Assembly: GCA_032718475.1 (NCBI GenBank)
Contig: JAUCBJ010001196.1
Location: forward strand, 62,001 to 126,000
Source: Nemertoderma westbladi
Lineage: Eukaryota; Animalia; Xenacoelomorpha
Reading direction: 5' to 3'
Length of the DNA: 64,000 bases
Positions within the stretch are counted from its first letter, which is position 1. The number at the start of each line of letters is the position of its first letter. Below, piece after piece: positions 6,433 to 56,199 of the stretch. The translations under genes were made by a program, and so were the position numbers. The notes under the pieces were generated by a model. The model was not told the DNA's origin. It saw only the letters and a program-made list of their open reading frames with translations, and searched no databases.

Positions 6433-7171
6433 CCTCTACGCAAAAAATATAACCTTTTGCTTCAGTTGAATATGTTAGCGTATCCATTCGCTGCACCACC
6501 CAGTAAGAAAATGGGGAACTGTGATTTACGAATCACAACCAAGTATGCAATATCACCCAAAAGTAATATTGCATACCAGAAGGAGACGGGGCAATAATGC
6601 CAGTTTGGAGAAGACACAAACACATCTCAGGGAGAAGCTAGCATAGGGCGAGGGGAGATAGGGAGTGGCTAAAGAGTAAACCAACCGCTGGTGGGGCGGC
6701 ACTCCATCAATTAGCGCGCATCTATTGGTAGGTCGATAAAGTAGGTAGTGTATGTAATCTTCCATGCAATATCTATATAACTGTTACTCAGTGTTAATTA
6801 TGATTCAGTTGGCTATTAACCAGTGTAGGAGTCAAACGGTTTTAACCGTCGTCGTTACTGCTATTATTGTGCAATACTGATCGTGCTGTTATACCGGCAC
6901 TTATTTATCAGACAACATTATCATTACTGTAAACGAAACTCTGTGTTATTGTTACACCAGCCTTCGGCCTTTCAGTCCCTTGAATCACACTAGGCAGACG
7001 CAGCGACGTGTATCGACACACGACAAACACCGGTCGGAATACACTTGCCAACTGGGATCCCATCACAGAATATCCTTATATCCACCTCTAAAACATAGAA
7101 TTATATCAGTATAAATGGGTTTTCATATTTATTACATGTAGGCCGTATCATTATTATTTATTTTACAAAAG

Positions 7172-7378
7172 GTGTACGTGACCAACAGCAATGACATAAC
7201 AATCTTGAACGGTATTGGCTCCAGTTCAGAAGTACCATGTGGTATAATCACCCAAGGAACACCGCAACTAACTGTCATCAATTGTGTTGGTAATGTTGGT
7301 CGCTACATTGTTCTCTTCAATGATAATATCGACACTTTAAATTTCTGCGAAGTCATGGTTTATATCTTTGGAGTTTAA
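7172..7378 (+). CDS. Terminal exon encoding the C-terminal half of an F-type lectin (fucolectin-like) domain; possibly pseudogenic
   Basis: Acceptor ...TTTTACAAAAG at 7171. Peptide PCG...INCVGNVGRYIVL...LNFCEVMV fits the F-lectin C..GRYV..L..CEVEV pattern. Confidence 0.65.
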   Translation: MYVTNSNDITILNGIGSSSEVPCGIITQGTPQLTVINCVGNVGRYIVLFNDNIDTLNFCEVMVYIFGV

Positions 7379-10745: not shown

Positions 10746-11619
10746 AATTTTTTGGTTGTAACATTGGTAGTAAGCCATTCCTCAAGGAGACAGTTCATGA
10801 GTTAGTAGTAGCAGACGCGGTCCTTTGTGCGATTTCGCGCTTGTTTCTAATGTCCCATATCTATACTGAATTGGAGTTTGAAGCTTCGTAGTTAAAAAAC
10901 CCAATGTGCTTCCCAAGACATTAATTTTAAATAGGAAATTCATTCACCACGGGTTTAACTAAAGATATTATTCAGTTACAATATTATTGGATAATGGCGA
11001 ACCAAACCAACCATTTCCATTCTTGAAGCCACAGTTAATTGATAGCTAGCCAATAAACCGTGAGGCTTACGGCAGTAGATAGGCTTGTAGTAATGCAGTT
11101 TAATTAATTAACTTCTATCGAATAAGGACATGGCCCGGGTAAGGAGAGTGGAAGTTGGTAAATAATGTATGCCGGCTGATGGTTTAAAGGTGAATCTAAT
11201 TATGTTGGAGGCCATTGTGTTTGTATCACGTTCAAGCGCACAGTTAACATGGGTTTAACGGAAACTCTGGAGATACCGCCCTTTGATTGAGGTGATAATT
11301 AATTTTGTTGATACAACCTCCGATTCAGCCATTCACGAGAGATATTGTTTTTGGTTTCGGCCAATCCTGATATTAATTATGTTTGACTGACAGTTTGGGG
11401 TCAACTTTGGCGTCACTTCCTAGAATAACCAGGATTTTTTTGTATAAAAGGAACCCAGCCCACATTGTGTGACCTTGTCATTTTAATAGATTACTTCGGT
11501 ATGAGATTTACGCCCAAAAGTTTTGTAGATTGTGACAATAACTGGCTTCTTGACGGCCCTTTTTGGACAGTTTTGGAGAGGACATCAGCAGAGTTGGAGT
11601 TTGTTTTCAGCAAAGCCAA

Positions 11620-12254
11620 TATGAGGGACACAAACATTAATGAGGGACACACATTAATGAGGGACACAAACATTAATGAGGGACACACATTAATGAGGGA
11701 CACACATTAATAAGGGACACAAACATTAATGAGGGACACACATTAATGAGGGACACAAACATTAATGAGGGACACAAACATTAATGAGGGACACAAAAAT
11801 TAATGAGGGACACACATTAATGAGGGACACAAACATTAATGAGGGACACAAACATTAATGAGGGACACAAACATTAATGAGGGACACACATTAATGAGGG
11901 ACGAAAACATTAATGAGGGACAAAAACATTAATGAGGGACACAAACATTAATGAGGGACACAAACATTAATGAGGGACACAAACATTAATGAGGGACACA
12001 CATTAATGAGGGACACAAACATTAATGAGGGACACAAACATTAATGAGGGACACACATTAATGAGGGATACAAACATTAATGAGGGACACACATTAATGA
12101 GGGACACACATTAATGAGGGACACAAACATTAATGAGGGACACACATTAATGAGGGACACAAACATTAATGAGGGACACAAACATTAATGAGGGACACAA
12201 ACATTAATGAGGAACACAAACATTAATTAGGGAAACAAACATTAATGAGGGACA
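11620..12254 (+). repeat. Minisatellite of mixed 19-bp (AATGAGGGACACAAACATT) and 17-bp (AATGAGGGACACACATT) units, roughly 35 copies
   Basis: Direct head-to-tail tandem array with no unique spacers. Confidence 0.97.
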
Positions 12255-12829
12255 TCTTAATAGTTAATAGACACCTTAATAATTTGTCTATGCCTAGGGG
12301 CCACACATATGCTTAATCCAGCTCTGGGGAAGAGCTGAGGAATCCAGCTCTTCCTTAATACGGAAGCCCACAAGTTCCCACAGTGCCTGAAAAACTACTA
12401 CCGTGGGAACGTGATCTCTGGTAGGGCGGCGCTGTAGACAATTACAATTCCATGTAGTTGCAGAAGGATGCCTATTAAGCTATATTTATTTTTGTTGCCA
12501 TTGGAGGGTGATAATGTTTACAGTGTGGGATATGGAAAATGCTACGTACTGGTAGCCGTAATAATGAAACTATTTAAACTATTCATTATAAATCCGTTGA
12601 GGTAGAAATAGTTTTGATGCATTTGTGGTATAAGTTTCTGTAATGGAACTTGTAAACTTGTAAGCATATGTGTGATTTGAAAGGTTTTTATACTTTAAGT
12701 AAATAAATGAGTAAATGGGTTTGTAAGCATATGTGTGGCCCCTAGGCATAGACAAATTATTAAGGTGTATATTAACTATTAAGGTGTCACTTATTAATGT
12801 TTGTGTCCCTCATTAATGATTGTGACCCT
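12241..12829. repeat. Inverted pair of MITE-like ends (12241-12315 and 12724-12829); the right copy starts the same minisatellite on the opposite strand
   Basis: ACACCTTAATAATTTGTCTATGCCTAGGGGCCACACATATGCTTA has its reverse complement at 12724-12768, followed by TTTGTGTCCCTCATTAAT. Confidence 0.8.
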
Positions 12830-15686
12830 TGTTACGATATATGGCGCTGTGTACTATTATCAGCCTATTATACAGTATAGAATATTTAGATAACCCGTAA
12901 TGATGTACAGCCATAATTAGATAGGGAAAATAAAATATCCATATTCATAGATCTTATTCATTTTGTATAGTATTTAGCCCTACGTACGTAATTTTGTAAT
13001 AAAATATAAATAAATAACATTACGGTAGCAAGTTTCCTATAAAACCTTGATACAAGCTTGCTGTTTATTGGTATTAATCGAATTAATCATGTATTTGCAT
13101 TAATTTCCGTTATATTTGTCTTTGAATTGGCTTTATATTAGATTGTGCTTAATGTACTTTAAAAATCGCGAAATTAATGTTAGAGCCAGCAGCCAGGGGT
13201 GCAATTCATTACCATATATGGTAATAATTTGCGATTTGGAAACCCCGAGGTTCACAATCCGGCTTCCTTATTGGCCCAGCTGTTCCAGGTTGGTCTAATG
13301 GTGGCGTGGATTGCTGAGCCAATGAGACGATTATTTTTCGCAATTATTCTGTGTAATTCCTTATTCTGCTTCTGTAATTTCTGATTTAATTCTTTGCTGT
13401 GTTTTCTTAAATTATGCATATTATCAATGATTACTGCAAATTACAATCTTGAACTATGATTTCGACCTTTTGATTATTAGTTTCTATGCGATTTAAGATG
13501 CGATAACCCCACGGGATTTCCTTAGACTGTCAGACTGTTTGTGAATGCATGCGCCGCTATGGTAGCTATTCGTTCTAATGGAGGGCTAAGGCACCGGTAG
13601 GTGCGGCGGGCGCACCGGGGGGGGGGGGGGGGGGGTCGAAGGGAGTGTAGAGGATTCAAAACGGGCAGCGCTGGCGGGGGGTCACCATTGCGGTGGGGAG
13701 ATAGTCAGTGGGGACTGAAGACCTACCGTCGGTACAGTATTAGGGGGCTGACGATCCAGATTTTGTCTCTACTTTGTAGTGTTAGGGGGCAGGGCTTGTG
13801 GTTAGTTAGGAAGCCTATATGCAGCTGTGGAAGGCCTTCGTGTCTTACACTGCCAACTGCTAATTGCATACTATACTGGTATACTGATACGTTACTGTAT
13901 GGTTTTAGTGCACTAGATAACTGGTAGTCAACGCAGTACCGTACTACAAGCTAATTACTACGCTAATTTGTGTTGTTGCTAAAGCTTAATTGTGAATACT
14001 TAGATAGGCGCCGTTCCCTTGATTGATTTCTATTTCTTAGTTTACGCTTTAATAATTGCTGATTAGGTCAATATAATACAGTATTTAGGCTGTTGCTAGT
14101 GTAACCCAGTATGTTAAAATTAGAATTGCATATTCTGGAACATCTAGTAATTAGTACGCTATTCCGTATTTATGACTGTAATTATTTTAGCGATAAAATA
14201 AAATAAGAATTTGTACGCAGCATAGCGGAGTGTAGTTTAAGTAATTATTTAGAATACTGTAAATTATTCACACTAGGCGGTTATTTGAAAATAGCGGGGC
14301 AACAGGCTGATAGGAGCATCCAGTATACAGTAGTAAGTTGCTGGCCTAAAGCCAGCCGAAGGTAAGTTTAGACCCCAAAATAAAGTACCAGAACTGGACC
14401 CGGTAGGTAATTAGGTTATTTAAACATTCTCACATTCAACAATTCTGTTAGTGAATTCCAGTATTTGCGATAAGTGAATGCGCTGAGTGTAAGCCACCCC
14501 ATACTCGTTTTAAGTAGCTTAGGGAGCCGATTCGGGTTTATTGTTTTGGTTATTCCCACGTGGCTCATAGATTCGAACAGTTAGCTCTCTGTCGAGCGAT
14601 CGGTAGAGGAAGGAGCAAGCGATTTTGTAGGAGCCGTATAAAATTAGTAAAACATATTAGCGGACGGCCAGGTTAGCGCCATCCAGCGGTGAGAAGAAAT
14701 TTTGTGTTTAGCAGCAGTGCAGCAGTAATAACGCGCTCCTGATCATGCTTGTTTAACAGTAAGACACGTTTTTATTTTGCTGTACTACGTACAGTAAAAT
14801 GTAAAGAGTGCGTTTACTAATCGCAAAATACAGTAATTCATTTGGGCCGTTAGGGTGAACTGTAAATTAGTAAGTTTTTTGAACATTTTAGCTAGGTTTG
14901 TGAGAATTCAGTTTCGGTCAAAATTGTTTATATAATAAAATCTAGAGTTTTGTTAGAGCTTAGTTATTTTATACCATCTGGAGATATATGGCGAGACGGA
15001 GCTTCTGAGCTTGGGGTTTGTGTAGGCCTGCGGGTTCGGTTTGCAATCAGCGACGAGACTGAAACTTTGGACGCGGACGTGGAATCTCACAGCAAACAAG
15101 GTTAGTTGTTCTGTTGGTACCATTGTGTTTGTGGAAGCAGTAAAAAATTACCGGTTGTTTAACTGCGAAGCTGAACTCAATTTATTAGTTAGGATAGTTA
15201 GGTTTAGCCAGCCATGGTGTTTTGGATCGCTCAGTTGGAGAGAGAGAGGAGTGTCGCAACCTGAAGGTGTAGCCACGCGCTAGTGGACACATATAATATT
15301 TAAAAATAAAATTACGTCAATTTTGAGCTATATATAAAATTGGAAATATTTGGGTAACGAATTCATTTTTTTTGAATTTTCTGAATTAGATTCAGAAACT
15401 ATTTTTGTGTCATACTGGTATTTAAATGCTATATAATAGCTATAGAGCAATATTTTCATTTAAATATTATACCGGTAATTACTATAATTATATATACCAT
15501 TAAATTCACAATATAATATTGCGAATTTATTTTGACATTTGAGACCAAATAATTTATTTGGTATATAATTTAATCGTATTTCGATTAAATTAATATATCT
15601 CGAATTTTTTGCGAGATTTTAGCCGGAAGGCAAATTATATACTTAGACTATCAGTGTCTCAGAGAAGGAGGCACTATAGGACAGTT

Positions 15687-16096
15687 ATGAGACGGCGGCC
15701 GGACCGCCGACTGATAACAGTGACTGTTGATGACAATGCCAACTATGACGACACAGCGAGTGACGCTGACGTAAGTGAACAGGAGGACGAGACAGTGACC
15801 AGTGAGGAAGAACAAGGTGAGATAATATTATTAGGATCCCCTACCGCTACTGTAAGGAAGGATTGCACAGCAGCCCGGCCAGAGGTGAGTGATAGGGAAG
15901 GTAGTCTAGCAGGATCGAGAGCCCGGAGCCCGGTTTCCAGACCTGTGGGTATGGTAAGTGCCATGGCCCCAGTGGCTGTAAGGAGTACCCATAGTTCTCG
16001 TAATAATCCCTAAGTCCACCGAGTGTGAGTCAGGTAAGCGAGAGAGAGGTAGATATCGAGATAAAGAAGAAACTTTGTGCGCATGCCGGACATATA
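15687..16096 (+). pseudogene. gag: Family B gag, N-terminal part
   Basis: Acidic, low-complexity ORF with a frameshift. Removing the family A insertion and one ATATA restores KKKLCAHAGHI-TRTTDKVRKML. Confidence 0.7.
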
Positions 16097-17293
16097 TGTT
16101 CGCGGTATTTCAACTTTTCATAACGCAAGTTGAATATTTTTTGTATTTATTTAAAATGATTATTCCGATATCACTACTGGGTGCGGGACAGTGTGTTTTG
16201 GGCATACTCAATGAACTGGGGGCGATTTATGGGCGAATATTGGGGCGACTTACATGGTACGGGATACGGGTGGGACGGACACGCGAAAGGGTCGACCGAC
16301 TAACAGCGGAAGGGTTTGACGAGGACTGCCCTTAGCGGTCTCTGGTCAACAGCAGTTATTACGAGCCTGAAAAGGACATCGGAAAGTCTGCTGCTTGTGC
16401 CAGGGATTTGCGACGGGGACCGACGACAGACCCCTTAGCCAAGCCGTACTGGTTCTCGATGATCGTTCGCTTCGGGGTTCGTGAGGGGTGGGACAGACAC
16501 GCGACGGGGTCGAAAGACAGAGGACTGGACTCTACTGGCCTACCGACTGTTCGGAGCAGTTTCTCGGCTGCCGAAGCGACTACGAGCCTGAATAAGGACT
16601 CGGAAAGCCTAGGTGGTTGGGTCTCTGCGATGAACTGACGGACCCCTAGCCAAGCCGTACTGGTTCTTGATGATCGTTCCCTTCGGGGTTCGTGACGGGT
16701 GGGACGGACACGCGAACGGGTCCACCAACACGACAGACTCCTAGCCAAGCCGTACTGGTTCTCGATGACTGATCCCTTCGAGGTTCGAGAGGGGTGGTAC
16801 AGATACGCGACAGAGTCTACCGACTGGACCGACCCTTAGCCAAGCCGTACTGGTTCTCGATGATCGATCCCTTCGGGGTTCGGGAGGGGTGGTACGGATA
16901 CGCAACAGGGTCGACCGACACCGACACTACGGCACCAAGACTAGGACCGAGGGAAAATCTGGGGAACATTAGTTAGGCTAAAATCTGAGCGAACAGTGGG
17001 TAATTAAATAATTTACTGTAGGGATTTATATTGTCGTGTATTATTATTGTGAATAATTTGGTGTATATTGGTTTGGGGAAGCCCAATTTATTCTCAATCA
17101 AGATTCAACTGTAGGGAAGTTACATTAAAGGTATATCCAACCAATGCAGCTTTTTCTCAACCGCAATCTTGCATCTAAGAACTTATTCCTTCTCCACAAT
17201 CAATATCCGGTGACTGGCCGGGATTCCGTGGTCTGTAAAGTTCCGCCTCCAGCATCGGCGTTTTCCCCCATGGTGTCGGGAATAACGGCAACA
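16097..17293 (+). repeat. Family A 5' LTR (about 300 bp shorter than the 3' LTR)
   Basis: Colinear with 25670-27165 except that it lacks ~25839-26138. Confidence 0.95.
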
Positions 17294-17539
17294 AAATTGA
17301 GAATAAAACGGTCAATTTTGACAGGGTGTCAAAATTGAGAATAAAACGCGGCCAACTTCAACTGGTGGAATTTGGGAATCCTGCAATACTCTTCAAACTC
17401 TCTCGGTGCTTACCCAGCACCAACTACGAGGAAACTCTGGTATTTGAGTTAAGACAAAGCCGTGGTTTAATCAATCAACAAACTCGATATAACAAACTCG
17501 TAGTCGGTAGATCACATATAAGAGAGTCATTAACAGGGA

Positions 17540-17731
17540 ATGGAAGTATCGATCACACCCATTGAAATAATTCAAGTTGAGCCAGGAATCTGGCACGTCG
17601 AGGTTGAAGTACAAGGAACGAACGTCGGACGATTCAGGATTACCGTTCGAGTAATCCAAGCCGAGTATGAGAGCTACGAAGAACTATTCTACGACATCGC
17701 ATATCTCGCTATCAACGAGGCACTAGAATGA
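17540..17731 (+). CDS. 63-aa ORF upstream of gag, function unknown
   Basis: Homologue at 51064-51255 (-) with 53/63 identical residues and many synonymous changes. Its stop overlaps the gag ATG (ATGA). Confidence 0.7.
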   Translation: MEVSITPIEIIQVEPGIWHVEVEVQGTNVGRFRITVRVIQAEYESYEELFYDIAYLAINEALE

Positions 17732-19195
17732 CAACGAACAACGTCTCCGAAACCGACGAGATGGACACCCACACAGACTCGGAAGCCGACGAGGTACCGA
17801 ATGTCAAGAACATGACCCGTCGACTAGGCGCTCTCAAAGGCGGAGTCACTCGAGCGTATCAACGTATAGAGAAACAACTCAAGAGAGTCGAAACTCCCCT
17901 CAACGAGATACAAACTCAGCTTCAGAATATCCGAAGTATGTTACAACGATATGAGAGGATGATACAGACGTATCAAGAACTCGTTCCCTCCACCGGCCAT
18001 GCCCAAGATGGAGATCCGCACCTTCGAAGGAGATCCCGTCGATTACCTCAGATTCAAGAAACGGTTTTTCGCGCAGATTGGATCAACGGACATAGCCGAC
18101 GTACAAAAGTTAGTATATTTATCCCAATACCTGGGCGACAAACCACGCCGGATTATCGCATGCTTCGAGGGAGGAGCTCATGAGGCATACTATGACGCAT
18201 GTAAAACTCTAGATAAAATATACAGAAATATCGGGACTATAATTAATAAAACTCTCGAGAAACTGATACAGGACGCGGGATCCCTAAGGGACCCACAGAA
18301 TATCCCAGAATTCTCAGATTCGATGAAGGATGCCTACTACACTCTAAAACCATTAAATAAGGAGGAACAAGTAAACAACATTCTAAACCTCCGACAGATC
18401 GCCCGGAAGTTCCCCGGATGGCTACAAAGTAAGTGGGCATATAAATGCGTAGATCTCCGGCGCAGACACCCAGATCGAGATCCCAGCTTCCTCGAAATGT
18501 CGGCATTCCTGGACGATGTCTCCGAAGCCATGAATGACTCGATGTTCTCGAAACAGAGTCTCGCCAAGTTAGACGGAATAGAAAGCAACTCCAGGAGTAA
18601 GACGCCCACTCAGAAACCGAGATTCCGTCCCCCTCCGGTGAGTACGATGGCCATCACCATGGCCGAGGATTCCGATGACGAAGACTACGAGGAACCGACA
18701 TCAGCCGAGGAATGGGCGTGTTACCTTGCGAATTGGGCACCCGAGAGGGAAGGCATCACAAACTCCCTTCTCTGTCTCTTCTGTGGAGAGAAACATAAAG
18801 TGGAATTCTGCAGGAAGTTCCAGTTTGCCGAACTCGTCCCATGCTTCGAGGCGATAATGAAACACCGAGGATGCTTCCGGTGTCTTGGAACAGGTCACTA
18901 TGTTCGGGATTGCGACCAAAGATCGTGCTGTGCGGGCTGTAACGACCTACGTCATCACACGCTCCTCCACATCCCCGCGAACTTTGACTTCACCATCCTC
19001 CCCTTTCGGATTGAAGCCAAGCGAAGAGGAGAAACGAACCACGTTTCTAAAGGAACCCGGACAACCCAACGGAGAGAAACCAACCCATTTAAAACCTCCA
19101 CCGATGCATCACAAGTAACAAATATCTCAGCCACGATCAACCTTATAAATCGCCGTTACATGGTCTTCGCCAAAGTAATCCCAGTAAGAATTTAA
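17728..19195 (+). pseudogene. gag: Family A gag (BEL-type, triple zinc knuckle), with a deletion/frameshift near 17995
   Basis: LKGGVTR N-terminus; PKMEIRTFEGDP..Y..F (DUF1759-like); CLFCGEKH..EFC, CFRCLGTGH..RDC, CAGC...HHTLLH. Confidence 0.9.
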
Positions 19196-20045
19196 GGGGT
19201 TGGTAAGTCCTTGACGACGCTCGCGTTCCTTGATAACGGGTCGGACGGAACCATCTTCGACCGGGATTTCCTCGAGCAACTCGGCCTAGAATATGAACCT
19301 TGCAAACGGCCCATACAAACTATCACCGACCACAGAGAGGTAGAATCCGGGGAGGTGCAGCTCCAGATGGGAGGAGTAATGAAGGGCTACGAGATGGTTA
19401 AGCTGACCATCAAGAACGCCTTGGTACACACAGACCTCCGAGTGCGGTTCCGACAATCAGCCGAATACGCCCCCCTCATACAATTGGACCGAGACGATGT
19501 AGACCTAAGGTGCCCGCCGTTGGATGTAAACCGCATCACCCTACTGATCGGACTTGATACACCGGAATTACACATACCCACCGGAGACGTCGCCCGATCT
19601 GTAAATCCAGATGACGGCTTTTACGCTGAACGAACGATTATGGGTTGGACACTTTGTGGCATCAAAGAGGAGACTACAGACACCTATACATATCTTCCTA
19701 AGTGCCAGATTAAAGAGAAGGCAACCTCCGTGGGTTACTGTTCGGTGACTGACCTCCATTCACCATCACAGCGTCACACCACATTTGTAGCGAACCGAGC
19801 CGGAGATAAAACAGTGTACCGGCCGAGAACAGTGGCACCACGTGAACGGGAAAGAAAATCCAGCAGACTTATCAAGCTGAGGCGCCAACCCAAAACAACT
19901 CGGTAAAAGTAAACTCTGGCTTACAGGCCCGGAATTCCTACAGCAACCACAATTAACATGGAGTACCCGATTCGATCCCGAACTCGATAGCAGAAAATAC
20001 TCCGAGGACGACAAAGAGATCCGTAAAGTCCATAGAAGCAACGCA
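19196..20045 (+). pseudogene. Family A aspartic protease fused directly to the RNase H C-terminus
   Basis: AFLDNGSDGT active site and LLIGLD, MGWTLCG motifs, followed at ~19760 by TFVANR, WHHVNGKENPADLSS and LWLTGPEFL. No YxDD region in between. Confidence 0.85.
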
Positions 20046-21694
20046 GTGGAAATTTATAGTTGTCTGACCGAGCCTGCAAAGGACTCGGGCAGGCACTATA
20101 ACGTCGCGACGATCACTCAACCAGCGGCGTCTTTATACCTGTTGATCGAGCGAACTTCATCAATGAAACGTCTCATCCACCACGTTATAACCCTCCGCAA
20201 CTTCCTACGGTGGAAAGATAACAAGCCGATAGTTCAACGGAGTATACAAGAACTCATTATCGTGGAGAAGTGTATCGTTGGATATGTCCAGAGAGAAAGC
20301 TTCCCCGATGAGTGGGAACAACTCAGTGCGGGCAAGACCATGAAACTGGACAGCCCAGTCTACCAACTGAGACCAATGATGGGAGAGGACGGACTGATCC
20401 GACTGAATACCCGGATGGCAAATGCCCCGGTTGAATATGAGGTTAAATACCCAGCGCTTCTGCACGGGACGTCGACACTAGCCAAGCTATTAATTCAACA
20501 GTGTCACGAGGAAAACCACCATGCAGGACAGAACTGGATTATAGCTAATATACGACAAAGGTATTGGATCACCCGCATCCAGCCCCTGATCCGGAAAGTT
20601 TTAAAACGTTGCTTTCCCTGCAGAAGATATCTAGCGCCACCACTCATACAAAAGATGGCCGACTTACCAGCCACCCGCCTAAACTCCGATTCCCCACCAT
20701 TCTATGTAACCGGAGTAGACTGTTTCGGACCGTTTGCAGTCATCGAGCGACGATCCAACATCAAATGCTGGGGAGCCATCTTTACCTGCCTTAGGTCTAG
20801 GGCAATCTACCTAGATATCGTGGTGAACCTTACGCAACACGCATTCATCAACGCCCTGCGTCGGTTCGTGGCGAACAATGGGACATGTCGTCATATGTAC
20901 TCCGATACGGTACAAACTTTGTGGGGGGAGAAAGAGAACTTAGAGAGGCGATCGAGGTAGGGTTTACAGAGGACACCGCATCCCAAGTCTGGAGGGACCA
21001 CCACATACAGTGGCACTTCCAAACACCCTTAGCACCCCATACGAGCGGGGTATGGGAGAAGCTGATCGACTTAGTAAAACGATCCATGCGCGTCGCATTA
21101 GGAGACACCCGGGTAACCCATGACACCCTCCGCACAACATTCTGCGAGATCACGGTTACCCTGAACAACCGGCCCATTGTCCCTATCCGCGACGACCCCA
21201 CAGACCTGGAGCCCCTCACTCCTAACCACCTACTGGGAAGACCCAAAACCCATATTCTCCCAGAGACGATGTTTCCGGATCCCGGCGATATCGCGAGACA
21301 TACTAACTGGAAGAAGGCCCAAGCGTTGGCAGCACATTGGTGGAGAATCTGGGCCCAGGAGTACCTCATAACCCTCCGGACCAGGAGGAAGTGGAACAAC
21401 ACCTACAGGAATGTCGCAGTTGGTGACATGGTGCTGGTGAAAGAAGACCTCAAAGACCGCGTCCACTGGCCTGTGGCGCGAGTTGTGGCAATACAACCGA
21501 GCAAAGACGGACTTGCGAGGACTGTGACGATACGAACGGCAAAGGGCCACTTCCAACGCCCTATCCAGAGGCTGTGCCTTCTTGAAGGCAATGACAGCGG
21601 TGACTCCAAGAGAGGTGATAAGTTCCCTACTCAGGATCCTGCTGCAGACATTGGTGACAATGCTAAACCCGTTAAACCCTTTTCATCCTGTTGA
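20046..21694 (+). pseudogene. Family A DDE integrase (one frameshift near 20905)
   Basis: H..HAG...CFPC zinc finger; GVDCFGPF, YSD-GTNFVG, GVWEKLI, LTPNHLL, WPVARV. Confidence 0.93.
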
Positions 21695-21970
21695 CAAACT
21701 CTTTAAACTGTGATTTACTGACAATGAAAAAATGAACCCCCCTTAAACCAACTGTAACCACGCAATGGTATTTGTGTTTCCTCGTGTGTTATGTGGAGTC
21801 CAGCGTCACCCTGCAGATGTTTCGACTGACGCAGGGTCGTTTATGTATTGTTCACCCTGATTTTGGTCATTGGGACCAACGAAATTGGATTATTGGAAAT
21901 GGTAAAGATTTGAAGTGGAATTCATTGTATCCATTGTAGTATGTTATGTTGTCCGTTGCGTGCGCAGTTC

Positions 21971-22351
21971 GGGGCGTAGGCGGTGTAACTAGTCCAGCTG
22001 TAGATCCCGGATTGCCGCGCAACACCCCCTCTATCCCATTATTCTGGTGGGTCCATGGTGCATCTACATGACTTCGACGATAGAGGGTTTTATGTTTCTC
22101 AGTCGCGTTATTCTGGTGGGACCGTTGCGTGGATTTTGGGGCGTAGGCGGTGTAACTAGTCCAGCTGTAGATCCCAGAATGTTGCGTAACCCCATCCCAC
22201 ATGACTTCGTCGGCTGAGCTTTATGTTGCTGGGAGTGTTGTTCTGGTGGGTCCCTGGTGCATTCCACGTGACTTCACTTCCAGTGTCTTCATTGTCCGTT
22301 ACGTGTGCAGTTTGGGGCGTAGGCGGTGTAACTAGCCCAGCTGTAGATCCC
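21971..22351 (+). repeat. Three copies of a 38-nt core at ~170-bp spacing between integrase and the extra ORF
   Basis: GGGGCGTAGGCGGTGTAACTAGYCCAGCTGTAGATCCC at 21971, 22138 and 22314. Confidence 0.9.
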
Positions 22352-22920
22352 AGATTGCCGCGTAACACCCCTTCCACGACGAAAATTTCCCAAAGAAGAT
22401 GATTGAATGTAGTTGGAAATGATGAAAAGAAACAGACGACATTACTATAAACCGAATGATGACGCGTATGATGATGAAAATGTAATGATGCGCACCCTGG
22501 TGCTGTGCTTATAACAAATGATGATAGCCGGGGGGCTACAACCCCAATGATGATGTGGAAATAAATGTGATGAAATGTGCAACTAAATGATGAAATGTGT
22601 TGAAATAAATGAAATGTGAAATGAAATAATAATGAGAAATGAAAAAAGACAAAAAAAAGGTATAAAAATGTCTAAAGAAAAGAATTGGAAAAAAAGAAGA
22701 GGAAAAAAAAAAGTCATAAACTGGTTGGATATTAATGTATAGTTATAGTAACTGTAAATGCTGAATGTATTAGCAATAAGATGATAGATGCCTATATAGC
22801 AATGTTATTTAATAAACTGAATTAAAAAAATAAAACTGAATTATTCTGCAATCACTATAGTTTCAGACTTTCTGGATTTATAATTAACTAATATAATTTT
22901 GCAACGGACATAATTTAAAT

Positions 22921-25553
22921 ATGGACCCAAATCGCCAAATTATCGGCGAATTACGTAATACAATAGATCTATTGGAATATCCACAACCTGGATCCCCTAA
23001 TTGTGATACAAATTGGAACGCCCTGATAAATGAGAATGTGCGAGTTGTCAAATTCTCCGGGTGAGAGGGACCGGATTCCCGGAATCTACGAGCCCTCCGG
23101 TTGGCCGATGCTAGTACGAGACTGAAAAGAACTCGGAACGCAAAGGCTACCGGAGGGGATGAGTTGTCATATTGGGAAACTTTTCGGCAAAGCGTCTACA
23201 GATCCCGATGTTTGATATACGACAACGAGGGAAACGCGACGCCCACCTCGAAAGCGATGACGTTGGCGCGATGTCAAAGTTTCGTCGATGACAACAGTAC
23301 GTACCTCGCCCACTGGCGAAACCTAGCGGAGTGTACGGCAATGCTACGAGAGGAACGTATATCCGTTATCCAGAATCGCGACGACTACCAGGAGAAGTAC
23401 GGGGCGAAAGAATACGGTCGATCCTTGGTCGTCGTCCTCGGAACCCTGGATGGTTTGGTATTGGTGTGTCGAATATTCCCGACACCCAGACAGGAAGTGC
23501 AAGCAGCCGGAGCGATCTGGTTGCTACCTCCGGAAATCCAAAAGATCCTCTTCGACTTCGACGTCATTAAAATCGGGTCGGATATAAAAGCGGACGTCCG
23601 GAACGACTACGCGAACGCTCCTTTAGGAAGAGACCATAAAGGAGATCTCAATGCCATTAGTCATTGCATCGACACCCAGACACTCCTAGCCTGGTTACGA
23701 TCCGCCGAATTCATGCGAGGATTCCGCGAGGTGAGACGGACGAAATCCGGGATCAGCTACCTCGCTGTACTAAACGGCGGCATCGACTTTAAACCTCAGA
23801 AATTCCAGGACTATAATAAGATATATGGTAGATACCCGGGATTGGAAATAAAGAGCGAGTGAGAGGGTCGATGGAAGGACGTTGACAGGAGGTGGACGAT
23901 ACACCAAAGGTGGGAAAATCCCGATCGACGGAACTACATCTACGTCGTTATGGAGTCCTACACCGTTGCTAAGTTTATATGTAAAACTCTCGATAACCTC
24001 ATTACGGCGGTTCCTCTTTCCTTTGTCGACTACGACTGGAACGAGGTTATAAACCACGCGTTCAAAGCGGTCGAGAACATTACACCGGGAGAGACGAAAA
24101 CACTCACCGTTATCGATTCCTGGGACGAGAATGGACCTAACGACATCGCCACGATTACCGATCTTCTCTGTGCAGAGGAGCCTCTGATTTCTTCAGAAGC
24201 TACATGAGGGCATTCTACTGTCTACCCCAAAGCGACCACTCGAGCCGGAAGCTGCATACGAACCGGCCGCCAAACGGGTTGCCTCGGCCGAACCTGCGAT
24301 GGAAGCAGGCGCCTCTACCCCACTCGGCTCCGGTAGCCCTGCGAGGGAGTTAGTCACTACCTCCGCGTTGAGCGACTTCGGCGATATATGCCAAAGGTTA
24401 TCCCCATATCCTTTCCCGGGCGGCGAAGACTGGTCATCAGAGATTCCGAGTACCAGCCTCAGCGATACTGGTCGAGAAGGGTCCCAGCGCTGCGCCGACT
24501 CCCGAAGATCTCCTCGGAATCCCTCCGTCGAAAACCCCGGCACCTCTTCGCCGACCAGCGGTGGCTACTACCCCCTCCGTTCCACAGGATCCTATGCGAC
24601 TAACCCGATGGTACGCCGAGCAGACCGAATGGATCCACCGCCAGAAACGGTCGTCTGAGATGAGACCGGCAGGACATAAAGAAGGTTATCGGAGCGAGAA
24701 CCTACTATGCCAAAGCCCAGCCTTTCGCGGGCTACCAGCCACCGCGAATATTCAAAAGAGCGACCGACGACTCGAGTATTACGTCGGCGTCCCGATTCTG
24801 ATATTCCCCGGTCGAGAGATGCAGTTGGAGATATGCGCAAACTGCGGTTCGGAGCAGTGCCCATGTGGTAGACGAAATCGGGTTACTGATTCGTGCCTAC
24901 AGCTCCTCGGGATACTGTATTGCCCATACTGCGCAACATCGGGACATGATGTCTCGGTTTGTCCAATCCTTTATAACCTCTGCACAACTTGCGGTTTCCG
25001 TGGACATTCCGCTAGCCCCGCTGCTATATAAAATGTCCTACAAAAGACGTTACCGCTATGGGAAATATGGTCATGTTCGAAACATACGCAAACAGCCATA
25101 TAAGGACCAAAATGCGGAGAAAAGCTCAGAATATCGCACAGGAAATGGCATGCGGGTACTTTTCCTTCCCGACACCTCCACACGACAGCGACGTTACCTT
25201 TTCACTACGTGGATCTGTTGCTGAGCGCCGGATTATTCGGCCCATTCGAAGTCCTTAGACGCTTATATTCGTATAAGGAGGAGTTTGGTGACGGAAAGTG
25301 GTTCCTAGAGGCGCGCAACACCGAGTTGGAAAGACGTACCGATATGATCCCGTTGCCATCGAAAGGAAGAGCCGCCAGGAGACAAGCCGAAACGTTGCTC
25401 ACGATGGATGTCGATGCTCCCCTACCAGCTCTAGCGATCGATGAGAGTCGACGGGCGAAGAGGAGGAAGGCCTTATCAGAGAAAGAAATAGAGGACCAGG
25501 ATATTCCAGGAACATTTATATTGGACATTTATTCTTTATATATATATATATGA
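22921..25553 (+). pseudogene. Family A extra ORF: DEDDy 3'-5' exonuclease-like domain plus CCHC zinc knuckles (stops and frameshifts)
   Basis: ATG 22921 is in frame with ORFs 23101 and 23950 through two TGA codons. Motifs LIYDNEG, LPPEIQKILFDFDVIKIGSDIKAD, CIDTQ, SGISYLA and YIYVVMES; CPYCATSGHDVSVC at 24921 and CTTCGFRGH at 24981. Confidence 0.65.
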
Positions 25554-25669
25554 ACTCTAGGCCAAATTAATCAAGACTATGCAATATTACAATTTTGGGT
25601 TTTTTATATGGGAATGACCTATGCAAACTCAATCTACCGATAGACCTCACGAAGGTCATTGGGGGGGAC

Positions 25670-27165
25670 TGTTCGTGGTATTTCAACTTTTCATAAAAGC
25701 GAGTTGAATATTTTTTGTATTTATTTAAAATGATTATTCCGATATCACTACTGGGTGCGGGACAGTGTGTTTTGGGCACACTCAATGAACTGGGGGCGAT
25801 TTATGGGCGAATATTGGGGCGACTTACAGGGTACGGGATTCATTTCATGTATATAAGGGCCAGGGGGGGAAGGAAAAGTTAAGCAGTATTCAGGTTTACC
25901 TGACTACTATTAGGCCTAGCCAACTTCCTGCTGCCTGTAGAGGTGGATTTGGTAACTCGCTAGGTCTAAAGGACAAGGACTGCCCTTAGCAGTCCCTGGC
26001 CAACAGCAGTTATTACGAGCCTGAAAAGGACATCGGAAAGTCTGCTGCTTGTGTCAGGGATTTGCGACGGGAAACGACGACAGACCCCGTAGCCAAGCCA
26101 TACTGGTTCTCGATGATCGTTCCCTTCGGGGTTCGTGAGGGGTGGGACGGACACGCGAAAGGGTCGACCGACTAACAGAGGAAGGGTTTGACGAGGACTG
26201 CCCTTAGCAGTCTCTGGTCAACAGCAGTTATTACGAGCCTGAAAAGGACATCGGAAAGTCTGCTGCTTGTGCCAGGGATTTGCGACAGGGACCGACGACA
26301 GACCCCTTAGCCAAGCCGTACTGGTTCTCGATGATCGTTCCCTTCGGGGTTCGTGAGGGGTGGGACGGACACGCGACGGGGTCGAAAGACAGAGGACTGG
26401 ACTCTACTGGCCTACCGACTGTTCGGAGCAGTTTCTCGGCTGCCGAAGCGACTACGAGCCTGAATAAGGACTCGGAAAGCCTAGGTGGTTGGGTCTCTGC
26501 GATGAACCGACAGACCCCTAGCCAAGCCGTACTGGTTCTCGATGATTGTTCCCTTCGGGGTTCGTGAGGGGTGGGACGGACACACGAACGGGTCCACCGA
26601 CACGACAGACTCCTAGCCAAGCCGTACTGGTTCTCGATGACTGATCCCTTCGGGGTTCGAGAGGGGTGGTACGGATACGCGACAGAGTCTACCGACTGGA
26701 CCGACCCTTAGCCAAGCCGTACTGATTCTCGATGATCGATCCCTTCGGGGTTCGGGAGGGGTGGTACGGATACGCAACAGGGTTGACCGACACCGACACT
26801 ATGGCACCAAGACTAGGACCGAGGGAAAATCTGGGGAACATTAGTTAGGCTAAAATCTGAGCGAACAGTGGGTAATTAAATAATTTACTGTAGGGATTTA
26901 TATTGTCGTGTATTATTATTGTGAATAATTTGGTGTATATTGGTTTGGGGAATCCCAATTTATTCTCAATCAAGATTCAACTGTAGGGAAGTTACATTAA
27001 AGGTATATCCAACCAATGCAGCTTTTTCTCAACCGCAATCTTGCATCTAAGAACTTATTCCTTCTCCACAATCAATATCCGGTGACTGGCCGGGATTCCG
27101 TGGTCTGTAAAGTTCCGCCTCCAGCATCGGCGTTTTCCCCCATGGTGTCGGGAATAACGGCAACA
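25670..27165 (+). repeat. Family A 3' LTR with internal ~90-240-bp subrepeats
   Basis: Follows the PPT; repeated TAGCCAAGCCGTACTGGTTCTCGATGA...CCCTTCGGGGTTCG units. Confidence 0.95.
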
Positions 27166-27170
27166 ATATA

Positions 27171-29900
27171 ACCCGGACGACGGACAAGGTAAGAAAGATG
27201 CTAGCCGACTCCGGTAACATCGGCAGGGAAGGGTTAGTAGAACTTATAAAGGGATATAACTCAGCGTGATTTAGCGAGATGGGGGAGCTTGCAGTCCTAG
27301 CGAAGAGAGCAGTGGAGTCTCAGTTGAGCGACGTAGCGACGAAGATTTACGACAGGGCTTTAGCGGCCTTGTTGGAGCACTGCGCGGTATCGGAGCGATT
27401 CCGACGAGTTAGGACAGAAAACTGGTTTCTATAGGCGCCGCGAGCGCAGGCGACTCAGGTAAGTGACGTGGAGTTAAGGAACTTCGTGGAGCAGGAAGAG
27501 ACCCAAGACAAGGAAGATCGACGATACCAGAGGGAAGTCACCAGCTGGCTGATGCAGAGCGGAGTAGTAGTACCGGGTCAGGTGTTACCGACAACGGAGA
27601 ACATCCAACAGAGGACGTTAACTCCACCCGACGACGCATCCAGAAACAGTGGGGATTCTCAGGTTAGTCATGCGCGAGGGAAGGTTATATGTGCTAGATC
27701 CCTAGTTTCTCACAACTCGGCAGAGGAGAGAAGACGACAATTAGACGAACAATTAGACGCAAAGCTGCGCAAGTTGGAGGACATAAGTAAGTGTGAGCAA
27801 GCCGAACGCGAACAGGAAGAACGCGAACTCCAACTTGAGTGCGAACGCGAACAGAAGGAACTCTAACTCGAGCGCAAACGCGAACAGAAGGAACGCGAAT
27901 GGAAGGAACGCGAGCGCCAACTAGAATGCGAACGGGAAGCCAAGGAATGCGAACAAAGGAGATGCGAATTTCAACTCGAACGCAAGCGCAAGGAGCGCGA
28001 ACTTGAGTGCGAGAAAGAGCGACGTGCATTGTATGAAGAAAAGGCGCGACTGGAAGAAGAGAGCGCAGCGAGTCTCACGAGGGAAGAATAACAACGCAAA
28101 CTGGCGCAATTGGAAAGTGCGAGATTAGACTTAGAAAGCGAAGAATGAACTAGGAAGGCAAATGAAATTGACGAGAAGGGGATGCGAATGATCGAAGAAT
28201 GTGGGGCGAGTGTAGGTACCGAGTTGCGAGAACTGTTCGCACAGCAGAAGGCCGAACAGGAGGCGAGAACTCCAGTTATACGTGAGTCGACGGCGACCAG
28301 AATTCCTATACCCAGTCCAACTATTACGAGTACTCGGATCGCTAAACCATTTTCTACATATCGCACACCAGTTGGCATTAGTGCTTCACCCATCGCGCAG
28401 GATCCGCACCATCAGGACGGCGCACAGCGACGCAACTATTATCGAGACGAAGAGGAGTTTATAGAAGAAATTCCTAGAGGCCGAGTATTGGGCGAACCGA
28501 AACCGCAGATTTGGAATATGCGGATGGATCGCATTCCCAGTTCGACGGAGAACTTCCGGGTTAAACCGGAAGAAGGATCATATGAGAGACAGCGGATTAC
28601 CCAAATAGAGCCGACAATTCAGCAGAACCCTAGCCAGGAGTTTATTACGAGGGAGGAGTTAGGTACCAGTTTAGTGCAAGCTATATTGCCGCACATCCAA
28701 CCTATAACGGACATGCTTAGTATCCTACAGTTAAAGGAAGCAGCACATGTAAGAAGTAATTCTAATCCTAGCAGGCCTGAACTAGATAGAGTCCAACCTG
28801 GCCAACAAGTACGCATATCGGAGGCAACAATACCACAAAGACCTCAAGTAAGAATGCCCGTCCCTACGATCCACAATCCCGACATCGAACACTCGGCGGA
28901 GAGATTTATACAGGAGGCCTGGGTCAGGGCCTCGGCGCATAAACCAACGCGAGCGCTGAGAACCGACACAGACTCGAGCGATGAAGAGGAAGAATCGTCC
29001 CAAAACTGGAAGGAAAGAAGGACCGACGCGGAGCAGGTAAGTATGAATCCCCTGACTTAACAACCCTGCAGAACTAAACAATTTGTTAACCCGGAATGAC
29101 GCAACCCTTAGAGATATAGGTAAGTTTGCTGCTAGTTCAACTATCTGCTACAGATGCTCCATCGAGAACCTAGAGCCATTGCTGACAACTTCATCGGCAA
29201 TGAAAGAGCATTTGAACTAGCTATGAAGACCCTTAGCGACATCTACGGGAATAAAACCAAGATGGCACAGTCGATAGTGGAAGACTTGGGTAAAGGCGGA
29301 AGGATTATAACTCCATAACTCTATAACTCTATAACTATAACACTATTTCGAACGCATTAGACATCTTGAGGACGGTGAATCTACCTCATCATGGTGATCA
29401 CGCCGAAGTTTTAAAGAGCATAATAAGAGGTTTAAACATGCATTACCGACAGAAATGGCGCAAATTAGAGAATAAGTTAGAGGGTCAAGGTAAGATGTTG
29501 AACCCCTGTGACTTTTAACTCAGTAGACAGATATAATTCGAGTACCCCTGCCATTAGATCAGACTCGCGAGTATGGTCATGTGAGCGGTCAGATAGACCT
29601 AAGGTAAAGCAACAGGAGTTGCCGGATGGATTTGTAGGTGGTTGCCAATTCTGCTTACTAAAGGAGGTAAGATCTGACGACCATAAGTTAGACAGTTGCA
29701 GACGGTTTAAAGACTAAACTTCGGAACAGAGAAGGGTTCAAGTGCGGACGTTGGACACCTGTTGGGCATGTCTTGCGCCCGGTCATATACGGCGGCAGTG
29801 CCCGAACAGCAAGGACGGATGCATGGAATGTGGCAGACTACATCACAAGTTGCTACATGCGGATTTCCATACCCCAATGGACCGTTACTTACAGAGAAAT
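27171..29900 (+). pseudogene. gag: Family B gag, remainder (coiled-coil EREQKE repeats, zinc knuckles)
   Basis: CQFC...HKLDSC, CWACLAPGHIRRQC, CMECGRLHHKLLH; many stops. Confidence 0.8.
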
Positions 29901-30046
29901 CCTCAAAGGAAGGGGAGCAGAGATCCCGTAACGATAAGAAGAAATACATACACCGGCATCCAAGACGATGGATATCAACCAGGTTCGTCGGACGAGGACG
30001 GTGAGGCGAGCGCGAGAGAGGTGACCTGCCAGGGGTTCACCGTGGA

Positions 30047-33000
30047 TTGGATAGTTCATCGACCAGCGCGCGGATGTATTTATCATCGGTCACGTCAGAG
30101 ATATTCAGCATGATTCCGGTGAAACTTACTGGAGATAAGGGGTCGAAAAGAATATATGTGATGTTGGACATTGCATCCACATTATCATATATAGACGAGG
30201 AAGTGGCGAGAGCCATTTCCAGCTTCCGGGATGCCGAGGAAATAAAGATAGAGTTAAAATCCATGCACGGGGTAGGTGACCTTAGGGGACATAAGATTTC
30301 GGTAGAACTAGACTCCCTACTCCCGAGAGACGAGCACACTCGACAAGAGCGGAGAGCTTTGCCATTGGATGGATTCAAGTGTCTAGCTATGAAGGGGTTC
30401 GGCAGGCAGTTATGTAAGGTGCCACCGATGAGTCCCATAGCACAGGAGTATTTTGACAAGCTCAGAATACCGAGACACCAGGTGGGTTATAGGAATGCGT
30501 CTATGTTGATTGGAGCAGAACAGCTGATCGCGCACCAAATATGGGAAACGAGACCAGCTGAGCCATATGTAAATGGGCCACACACCCATAGGATTATATT
30601 AGGTTGGTATACACGAGTACTCATATGTTATGAGTTTTCAGGCGGCGATAAGCCAAAGGATAGACACGACAAATTACAGCCTATAACTCAACAACCGTTA
30701 GTAGAACCACCAGACATAGACGAGTTTAGGAGAACCTGTATTGACCACTATAGCGACTTTAGCGAGTCAGACGAGGAGTTGATTCCCGATAATGTTAGAT
30801 TGTAGGAACCACTCTAAAACGACCAGACAGATAGTGAACCCGAGGACTACTGTTATCAGACCCGTGGGTCTGGTTCAGTGGCCCACGCCACTTATTTGAG
30901 TAACATTTTGACTTATACCAATATAGTGGAGGGTCAGGTGGCGAAATATCGAGACCTCGACATTTTCCAATGGAGAACAACTACAACTTGGCCCTGAAAC
31001 GATTGAACGGAGTAAGGGCTCGGCTGTTAAAGAATCAAGATGTTAGGGAGAACTATTTCGCCAAGGGATTTGCTGGGAAGGTAGAGAACCCCGACTTAGT
31101 GATGGACCAGACTTATTACCTCCCACAACACTATGTGACTCACCCCGACAAACCAGACAAGGTCCGAGTAGTCAATGACTGCGCAGCAGTCTATAGAGGT
31201 ATGTCCCTGAATTCAGAGTTGATGGATGGTCCCAACCTAAATAACTACTTTATAGGGATACTGTTACGCTTTAGACAGCGGCGATTTGCGTTTACTTGCG
31301 ACATCGAGGCGATGTTTCACCAGGTAAGAGCCTGCAAGGCGGACCAGGATAGTCTCAGATTTCTCTGGTACGAGAATGAAGACCTATCCGGCCCAGTGGT
31401 CACATACCAGATGTATGTCAGGATATTTGGCGCCTGCGATAGTCCCAATGGTACGTTGTTCGTTTTAAAGAAAACGGCGACAGCCCAAATTGGTAAGTAT
31501 CCAGTAGATGTTATCGAGTCCATCCTGAGAAACTTCTACATGGACGACGGATTGGTGTCCAAAGACACAGCGGAACAAGCCATAGAAGTGGCTCACGGCC
31601 TACAGGAGTGCTTGGCTATAGGAGGTTTTCCACTAACCAGGTTCACCACCAATTCGGAGGCCTTATTAGAATCGTTCCCGGTGAAGGATCACGGGAGCGG
31701 AGACATTGAATTGGGTGTAGAACCCATCCCCATGGCGTGAGTATTGGGACTCGCTTGGAACCCAAACACGGATAAGTTCCAGGTGAGAGTTAGGTTTGAA
31801 CCCAGTAGCCCAGACAAAATTTTTGACCTGATGAACTTTATCAGTCCAGTAATATTACAGGCACGAATATGTATGAGGAAAATCTGGCTGTCCGACCTAG
31901 AGTGGGACGAGCCAATATCCCCTATACATGCAAAGAAGTGGAGAGAGTGGGAAGCCGATTTACATCTATTGAAAAATATAGATGTACCCCGCTCCTACTT
32001 TCCGAATCAGCTGGTATTTCCAGCTGATCTTGAACTGCACTTATTCAGTGATGCAAGTGACACCGGCTTTGGTATGGTAGCCTACCTTCGCCGAGAGGTA
32101 AGTCAGAATAAGTTTGAGAAGGCCTTTGTGACCTCTAGATCAAAGACAATGCCGGTCAAATACATGACAGTCCCTTGTGCAGAGTTGCAGGCGGCAGTAG
32201 TCTCGGTTGAAGTAAGTAAGCAGATAATAGAGGAGTTGGACACGACATTGACATTATTTTATTGGACGGACGCATCCTTAGTGTTAGTGTATGTTGCAGC
32301 TGACAATATTGCACTAAAGACATTTGTGGCCAACAGACGCGCTCATATCGTCGACTTTTCGACGAAGGAACAATGGAGACATTGTCCGGGAGTGTTAAAC
32401 CCGGCTGACATAACTTCGAGAGGTGCTATGCCGGCGGAATTCTGTCAGGAGGAATCCCAGGTGTTTTGGTTACATGGGCCTGATTTTCTAACGAGGACAC
32501 AGGATCATTGGCCAGAGCGACTGAAGATAGTGACCAATCCGATGCCGAAGGATGCAGAGGTCAAAGTGGAGAAAGTTTCCAAGTCTAAGTCTAAAGCCAA
32601 ACTCGAGTCATTGGAGCAGTCTGAAGAGTCATTGGAGTGGCTTGAAGAGTCATTGGAGTGGCCCGGAGACCTGTCAGACCAAGAGACTTACGTGACTACA
32701 AGGTCCGGAAGGGTAAGTTATGACATAAAACCACCCTTACAGACTACACAAGGGTCATAATTAGTAAGTGACGGACAGAAAATGACCGACAAGATGGAGC
32801 CTTCGGTTTCTAAACCTGCGGGTTTGGATTCGAAACTTCCATTAGCTAGTGGACAACCATCGCTGGCATTAGAGCCATGTAGTATTTATGACAAATTACT
32901 AAATTCATCCGCCTCTTGGCTGACAATTTGTAAAAGAACTGTCTGGTTAAGCCGATACATTTCGTACCTTTGTTTAAAACATTAGAAACACTTAGGAAAA

Positions 33001-44200: not shown

Positions 44201-44276
44201 GACAGTCATTCCACAAACCCCGGCCACATCTCGCTCGGGACGAAACCTCCGTCAGCCAGACCGATTTGCCCCGTAA
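41200..44276 (+). CDS. pol: Gypsy pol (PR-RT-RNase H-IN) in the -1 frame to gag; one disabling frameshift near 41730
   Basis: YLVDCGA, SPWAS, WRPCGDFRRLN, MPFGL, YLDD, VDAS, RELLA, TDHKPL, HVDIVGPLP, SDRGSQF, NGMVER, PYSGPF. Confidence 0.95.
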
Positions 44277-55700: not shown

Positions 55701-55911
55701 AAGCCGATAGAGTCGTTCGATAACCCAATGGATACGTTGCTCAGTTACAGCTCCACCTGGTATAAGACGAAGAAGCTAGTAGCATATCTGAGGGCCTACG
55801 GAGAATTCCTTAGGGGAGCTGGTAAGGATACCAAAATGAGACCCACCATCGATCTGGAAGGAGCGGCCAAAGCTGTGATACGATATGAGCAAAGGAAGGG
55901 GTGCGGAGATG
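52738..55911 (+). pseudogene. pol: BEL/Pao family D gag-end/pol fragment (PR, RT, RNase H), heavily decayed
   Basis: MLVDSGA, LIVGMD, FGWMLCGP, YYLPLH, CDIEGMF, FYLDDG, LHMFSDAS, PKLEL, WTDAM, NPVDLLSRG. Confidence 0.9.
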
Positions 55912-56199
55912 AGGTAAACTGCGTCAGCAAACAACAACGTCTTTGTCAACAACGTTTGTCTTCGTCACAACTCTTAGATTTATCACTCTCAGCGTTTCAA
56001 AATTGTTTGGTTTTGGCTATAATTTTCAATATACTGTAGGTACTTCACATGATGGGTGAGAAAATTATTATTTTTCGCTATTTAATATTAGTTAATACTA
56101 GATAACAATAAAAAAAACTTAGAATAATGTTATAAGTGTTATAGTTATAAGTTGAGTTATATGAGTTATATGTCGAAGAAAAACGAGCAAGTTTGTTGT

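Follow-up and report, generated by a model that had tools for sequence, protein, structure and literature searches.

Sequence signature of probable tRNA-independent self-priming in a BEL/Pao retrotransposon family of Nemertoderma westbladi

Anatomy and classification of element A

The window, i.e. the whole analysed stretch of 64,000 nucleotides of Nemertoderma westbladi DNA, comprises an LTR retrotransposon on the forward strand, termed element A, whose extent (16097-27165) was determined by self-comparison of the window together with inspection of the flanks. The element is bounded by a 5-bp TSD (ATATA; left copy 16092-16096, right copy 27166-27170) and starts with a 5' LTR of 1197 nt (16097-17293), which shows the termini TG..CA. 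The 3' LTR (25670-27165) has a length of 1496 nt and contains tandem repeats as well as TATATAAG at 25850. About 299 nt of the 3' LTR, including TATATAAG, are missing from the 5' LTR, while 18 differences between the two LTRs were counted across 1026 nt of the distal part. A G-rich PPT with seven G and a 2-nt spacer (together 25661-25669) precedes the 3' LTR, and this distance of 2 nt is mirrored by the 2-nt spacer (17294-17295) between the end of the 5' LTR and the primer site.

The internal region comprises gag (DUF1759, E 2e-10) and a weakly matching aspartic protease (E 8.5e-4), which were identified by Pfam in several frames at 17671-19906, followed at 19881-21694 by the end of the RNase H region and a frameshifted integrase (Integrase_H2C2, DUF5641), assigned by Pfam and by comparison with relatives. 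Reverse transcriptase (RT) and most of RNase H, corresponding to about residues 668-1229 of a full-length relative, are missing, and element A therefore needs an intact partner. Neither this loss nor the gap in the 5' LTR had been noticed in the initial annotation. The best protein relatives were BEL/Pao polyproteins with 27-41% identity, carrying Peptidase_A17, DUF1759 and DUF5641. With its TG..CA LTRs, 5-bp TSD, PPT, BEL-type Gag and integrase domains, and the integrase in the last position of pol, element A is a non-autonomous BEL/Pao LTR retrotransposon. In a tree of the integrase region (RT is absent from A as well as from copy B, described below), A formed a long and unsure branch among BEL sequences.

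Between the integrase and the 3' LTR, broken extra frames (23065-25551) comprise a 3'-5' exonuclease-like domain and a Cys/His-rich part. The exonuclease-like frame showed an atlas score of 0.93 to DNA_pol_A_exo1 clusters, with 160 shared features, which is below the 170 typical of true members. The Pfam search gave no match for this frame and a weak zinc-knuckle match for the Cys/His-rich part. Of two homolog searches with the exonuclease-like frame, one gave 0 matches and the other gave 2, namely an unrelated repeat protein and a protein without a Pfam family. The exonuclease identity serves as a lead only. In older reports, BEL-type Cer elements of C. elegans are said to carry an exonuclease domain and an element-encoded tRNA-like primer.

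The tandem repeats of the LTRs (218 nt x2.9 and 95 nt x3.1; 25971-26798, 16268-16926 and, in copy B, 52260-51850) fold as conserved RNA hairpins, in which double changes occur at 3 of 22 pairs next to many tolerated G-U changes; a further, short hairpin contains a bulged A. Rfam gave no match for these hairpins; based on the modelled folds, they could possibly represent packaging or regulatory RNA elements. Over 15500-27500, Rfam gave a single match at chance level, and no tRNA was detected within the window by ARAGORN.

A truncated and diverged second copy of the element, copy B, is located on the minus strand. It comprises a 5' LTR of 1264 nt (51474-52737, read from 52737 to 51474) plus about 680 nt, and RT is missing in B as well. 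Element A itself is nested in another, decayed BEL/Pao element (about 15700-16096 and 27166-34550; Peptidase_A17, integrase). A gypsy-type element (40158-44471, forward strand), whose RT-RH-IN frame encodes 859 aa and whose TGG primer site lies at 40423, is inserted in the integrase region of a further BEL copy, and an additional BEL fragment with RT and Peptidase_A17 lies at 53232-56039 (forward strand). Furthermore, the window comprises a non-LTR-type RT on the minus strand (34725-36566), a GIY-YIG frame (56489-57334, minus strand) that may belong to a Penelope-like element, long inverted repeats at 59986-63859 (arms of about 900 nt with 85-93% similarity, which could represent a foldback element or a DNA transposon), and minisatellite arrays with units of 17-19 nt at 11568-12315 and 58158-58360.

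The primer site and its complement in element A, its family and its relatives

The initial annotation had proposed that element A is primed by its own RNA and that its 5' LTR ends at 17293. This end is fixed by the 3' LTR copy, whose last base is 27165, directly ahead of the TSD ATATA. By the standard scheme of reverse transcription, an LTR end fixed in this way places the end of the minus-strand primer about 2 nt further on, which is where the duplex considered here ends. As had been claimed, positions 17296-17307 (primer-binding site 1, non-tRNA), 2 nt past the LTR end, are the exact reverse complement of the 12-mer at 17087-17098, the candidate self-primer, which includes a constant 11-nt core at 17088-17098. 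A copy of this 12-mer is present in the 3' LTR (26959-26970). In copy B, the 12-mer within the 5' LTR (51681-51670, minus strand) is likewise complementary to the element's own primer-binding site (51460-51471, minus strand), and the layout equals that of A, with a 2-nt gap after the LTR end and the 12-mer located 207 nt (A) and 208 nt (B) from it. A match of at least 12 nt to the first 20 leader bases occurred in 20 of 10,000 simulated LTRs, and in 5 of 10,000 for the last 330 nt. The motifs described around the 12-mer, GTATATT and ATTAAA, were found again, TATATT lying 23 nt ahead of it and ATTAAA (17124-17129), a likely poly(A) signal which is kept in B, 25 nt after it.

The TGG of a tRNA primer site, which had been described as lacking after the 5' LTR of A, is absent within 30 nt of the LTR end in both A and B; the first TGG follows 70 nt downstream in A and 31 nt downstream in B. 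The gypsy element at 40158, used as an in-window control, showed a TGG right after its LTR and a self-match of only 5 nt. The stretch TGGTGGA, which had been raised as a possible tRNA primer site, is unlikely to function as such, since priming there would, by the standard reverse-transcription scheme, shift the LTR end by 31-70 nt, while the TSD fixes this end at 17293. Neither A nor B carries the tRNA-complementary primer site of the ICTV description. Since 13 of the 14 scored relatives described below lack it too, this finding counts against the ICTV generalisation and not against the descent of A. A primer-site scan of the BEL element enclosing A, whose LTR is undefined, gave a best match of 13 nt, which was reached by 2 of 10 null scans.

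A feature that had been missed is a 38-nt duplication in A, by which the primer site occurs at both 17296 and 17334. The second primer-binding 12-mer (17334-17345) is absent from B, and single-site copies exist in the family, as seen from the joint 17306-17353 in contigs. A perfect 12-bp hairpin within the duplication (17312-17338) is predicted to mask part of the second site, and RNA folding gave a predicted pairing of 0.69-0.97 for the first copy of the primer site and of at most 0.02 for the second. The duplication around the hairpin (17293-17348), for which matching family contigs are present, has a template-switch-like look.

The variation within the family, which is many-copy and variable, was determined from DNA contigs of three public samples over 17072-17325, with variants of at least 3% considered; the depths of these contigs do not equal copy numbers, and both sites never occurred on one contig. 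The 40 listed substitutions (of 44) all fell within 17103-17277, and none among them lay in either 12-mer. For zero variants in the 22 core bases P was 0.022, and it would be 0.24 if two of the 4 unlisted ones lay in the core. Since the block upstream of the primer is about equally conserved between A and B (63/73 and 13/14 identical positions, compared to 11/12 for the 12-mer), the conservation of the core gives moderate support only.

The covariation of the two 12-mers, to which the initial annotation had pointed, could be confirmed in part. A and B indeed differ by a paired change at base 12, which does not represent a rule for the family, since several contigs showed extra or changed T's past the 11th primer-site base, and a matching LTR change was not among the variants counted for X2, X3 and X4. 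According to tallies by kind of change, a T-to-A change at 17087 did not occur at 3% or more in X2, X3 and X4, while one unlisted T-to-A variant was present in X1; as 17087 lies 15 nt from the edge of the compared stretch, it may be under-reported in X2 and X3. In X4, T was found at 17087 in 3 of 3 LTR records and at base 12 in the one primer-site record. No compensatory change inside the 11-nt core was present among the listed family-contig variants. The pairing unit is the 11-bp core, which has the same length as the Tf1 primer.

Two further candidates were rejected. Between A and B, two double changes were observed in a stem which adjoins the primer on its 3' side (17099-17105 pairing with 17165-17171), but common variants at 17167 and 17169 break the pairing. 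An intron splitting the primer in the family of A was ruled out, with GTRAG occurring in the LTR of A only inside repeats and not at all in that of B.

Relatives of A were obtained by an integrase alignment search of public metagenome contigs, and the best 80 of 531 confirmed BEL loci, comprising 50 families, were analysed; flanking direct repeats were present at 33 of these 80 loci. Fourteen families were scored with a defined LTR end and 6 were scanned blind, while 30 comprised no usable LTR, among them L050 with a 2.6-kb terminal duplication. The LTR ends of L001, L020 and L021 were hand-trimmed to a shared CA/TA, and that of L071 was taken from the 5' copy alone. Scoring covered contiguous matches and matches across a GT..AG intron, for which the splice-site patterns and offsets were picked after a first look at the data and applied by the same rules to shuffled leaders. 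A gag search of metagenome contigs gave 130 pattern matches and an integrase search of viral contigs gave 9, with 0 confirmed in both cases.

A TGG within 10 nt of the LTR end was absent in 13 of the 14 scored families. Twelve of these 13 showed a match to their own LTR over 9-14 nt, which at most 2 of 300 shuffled leaders equalled; the match was contiguous in 3 families and ran across an intron of 78-372 nt in 9. A self-match of at least 11 nt was determined for 10 of the 13, with 8 distinct primer sequences among these 10 families, compared to a maximum of 10 nt between unrelated families (four families sharing one primer were set aside). L028 failed with 7 nt, equalled by 66 of 300 shuffled leaders, and the one family with a TGG showed a self-match of 4 nt only. 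The blind scan of the 6 further families resulted in 11-13 nt for 5 of them (reached by 0, 0, 2, 0 and 2 of 20 null scans), while L046 failed with 8 nt. In every family, the edge of the pairing lies 2-7 nt from the LTR end. In L017, the 5' LTR (1-214) lacks a 117-nt GT..AG intron that is present in the 3' LTR (6768-7265), which makes the 14-nt match contiguous; this is the only spliced junction found for the 9 families, and it stems from a contig that could be RNA-derived or chimeric.

In a quick integrase tree (no bootstrap), A was a long branch outside a supported group of relatives, which includes the TGG family. The position of this tRNA-type BEL family among self-pairing families in the tree (L004, L011, L014) could possibly point to a switch between priming modes.

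The tRNA-independent self-priming suggested by the initial annotation is thus supported mainly by the matches of the TGG-less relatives to their own LTRs and not by the covariation of a single base. As in Tf1-type elements, the primer site of A is complementary to its own LTR and adjoins the LTR end. Altogether, it is assumed that the family of A probably starts reverse transcription from 11-12 nt of its own RNA and not from a tRNA.

Two other explanations bear on the same data. A host small RNA or tRNA fragment could prime at 17296, with the LTR match arising by chance or as a by-product. An invariant 11-nt family core would be expected of such a host-templated site, and half-tRNA primers are known in copia elements (PMC6317226, available passages). 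However, a separate host RNA would be needed for each of at least 8 primer sequences, each of them copied in the element's own LTR, and in 9 of 12 families the LTR copy runs exactly across a GT..AG intron, which makes a host-derived primer most improbable. The pairing could also be structural or regulatory, e.g. by closing U5, hiding the poly(A) signal or acting as a translation or packaging switch, while a degenerate TGG site 31-70 nt downstream, a protein or another RNA would serve as primer. The TGGTGGA stretch is kept in A and B, and a competing stem is predicted in both with a longer leader (see below). On the other hand, the pairing edge lies at the primer position in every family, A and B share the LTR end but differ in the distance of the TGG site from it, and the relatives show either no TGG within 10 nt (13 of 14) or, in the one case with TGG, no self-pairing. 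We regard a structural or regulatory role without priming as unlikely.

Start of the RNA and proposed course of self-priming

Judged from sequence and folding models, it is about even whether the primer lies at the very 5' end of the RNA or behind a longer leader. A near start would fit the Inr-type motif that both A and B carry at 17088-17094, which is weak since 8 and 13 such motifs occur per LTR, the poly(A) signal only 25 nt downstream of the 12-mer, and the loss of TATATAAG in B. In the folds, the values for the duplex were 0.97-1.0 if the RNA began at most 12 nt upstream and 0.83-0.99 if it began at 17 nt, and for a start at 17087 the predicted pairing of primer-binding site 1 was 0.7-1.0. 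Formation of the primer duplex is predicted for RNA starts located no more than about 25 nt ahead of the 12-mer. A far start would fit TATATAAG, which occupies LTR position 180 in A and has counterparts of its type at 182-186 in L020 and L066, the introns of the relatives, which need a first exon, and the 79 nt that precede the primer in the L017 copy lacking the intron. It would also fit the absence of a TATA-type match 20-40 nt before the primer in the 12 relatives examined.

A G-rich arm at 17058-17083, which includes GTATATT, is predicted to pair with 17184-17211 and to rival the primer duplex. This competing stem is predicted for transcripts beginning at least 30-50 nt upstream, and with a leader of at least 57 nt the predicted fold hides the primer (pairing of 0.00-0.09 in A and B), by a margin of 1 kcal/mol in A. 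In a shuffle test, for which the arms were picked once the fold was seen, 14 of 2000 shuffles for A and 24 of 2000 for B were as good. The predicted folding of the region did not surpass that of shuffled sequences (z -1.2). The competing stem may be either a switch or a chance pairing of purine and pyrimidine tracts. Hairpins in U5 were predicted in A and B, but they differ between the two. For Tf1, a U5-IR stem-loop beside the primer site is reportedly required, going by the title of a reference.

A start far upstream, e.g. after TATATAAG, had been put forward as a refutation of self-priming. It would not refute self-priming, since only a cut on the 3' side of the primer would be needed, and both a near and a far start would be compatible with it.

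In the proposed course, the LTR 11-mer of the element RNA would pair with the primer site. By analogy with Tf1, RNase H of an intact family member would cut at 17098/17099, and extension of the resulting 3' end would run over the 2-nt spacer, U5 and R; strand transfer would use about 45 nt reaching to the poly(A) site, and the integrase would trim the 2 nt. In the family of A this primer would exist without an intron, whereas most relatives would need to splice it together. A wider reading, which is plausible but tentative, is that a large, mostly marine BEL/Pao branch changed from a tRNA to an internal self-primer, which in most families would be built by the spliceosome via an LTR intron, with only spliced RNA being copied, while the family of A would be intron-free and possibly gated by a two-state fold.

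Self-priming could alternatively proceed from the 12-mer of the 3' LTR (26959-26970), with the RNA circularising or pairing with a second RNA and being cut or trimmed back to the duplex. This copy would always be part of the transcript and is closely followed by the poly(A) signal; the primer likewise precedes the signal in 9 of the 12 relatives in which one is seen. If transcription began at 17096, where a second Inr-like site lies, the primer would be missing at the 5' end of the transcript. A also carries the exonuclease-like frame. However, a cut at the 3' copy would remove the 3' R needed for strand transfer. The exonuclease-like frame was matched by 0 of the 80 loci (best 80 of 531), only 687-944 nt separate the integrase match from the 3' LTR in the 18 relatives measured, and in L017 the 5' LTR copy is the intron-less one. 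Priming from the 3' copy is considered quite improbable. An exonuclease as the required primer-trimming enzyme was rejected due to its absence from all of these 80 loci; since no relative has one, the frame does not seem to be needed for self-priming.

Significance and comparison with known systems

If true, self-priming reaches the third big LTR superfamily, BEL/Pao, and may be common there. In this case, annotation tools requiring a tRNA site would miss or downgrade such elements, the control of transposons by tRNA fragments would not apply to them, and splicing would select the transcripts of the relatives that become copied. Self-priming is demonstrated for Tf1 and predicted for some groups of gypsy and copia elements.

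No paper on self-priming in BEL/Pao was found in the open-access literature searched, and an earlier mention in subscription papers or Repbase reports may exist. BEL/Pao is not listed among the self-priming groups in the available passages of PMC6317226, and the terms 'PBS', 'tRNA' and 'priming' are absent from those of three BEL/Pao surveys (PMC554778, PMC3118150, PMC6238403). The same holds true for reports of BEL/Pao self-priming in the accessible parts of PMC3601003, PMC6934838, PMC3286476, PMC13524379, PMC4580426, PMC8220671, PMC5443660 and PMC5445492, where PMC3601003 uses 'self-priming' at one place, outside the passages behind this negative result.

For Belpaoviridae, the ICTV describes tRNA-primed replication from an 18-nt site for tRNA-Arg or tRNA-Gly and LTRs of 0.2-1.2 kb, and the replication of BEL/Pao is called poorly understood (PMC8742986). 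The element Achilles has a tRNA-Tyr site (PMC4580426, in part). Like Belpaoviridae, A comprises LTRs, a PPT, the order gag-PR-(RT-RH)-IN, a 5-bp TSD and BEL-type Pfam domains. Unlike the described members, it shows no tRNA site, has lost RT and carries a 3' LTR longer than 0.2-1.2 kb (PMC8742986).

The lack of a canonical PBS is shared with fungal GalEa copia elements and bivalve TRIMs, for which priming is unexplained and a local hairpin in the leader is described in the available sections (PMC5445492, PMC6934838). While the authors of the GalEa study found no LTR complement, according to the accessible text of PMC5445492, A has one. The sequence signature of A is shared with plant Tcn1 chromoviruses and TAR copia elements (Houba, Osr-1), for which self-priming was predicted, but these are plant gypsy and copia lineages (PMC6317226, in part). 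Since self-priming was predicted from the same signature in Tcn1 and TAR, the trait already has more than one known origin (same passages).

Among the closest parallels are Tf1/Tf2 of S. pombe and Tj1 of S. japonicus, which are described as self-priming and which, like A, comprise no tRNA site and an 11-nt LTR stretch complementary to a site next to the 5' LTR (PMC7175516, PMC4600332, available passages). A does not belong to the Tf1/sushi group, as it shows BEL/Pao domains and no chromodomain match in Pfam; that group is Ty3/gypsy, while A is BEL/Pao with an LTR of 1.5 kb, and the relatives of A split the primer by an intron. For Tf1, a cleavage by RNase H after base 11 was demonstrated, and the primer comprises the 11 nt with which the transcript begins (PMC7175516, in the part available), whereas for A the start site and the cut are predictions from sequence, with an 11-bp pairing unit next to the LTR end.
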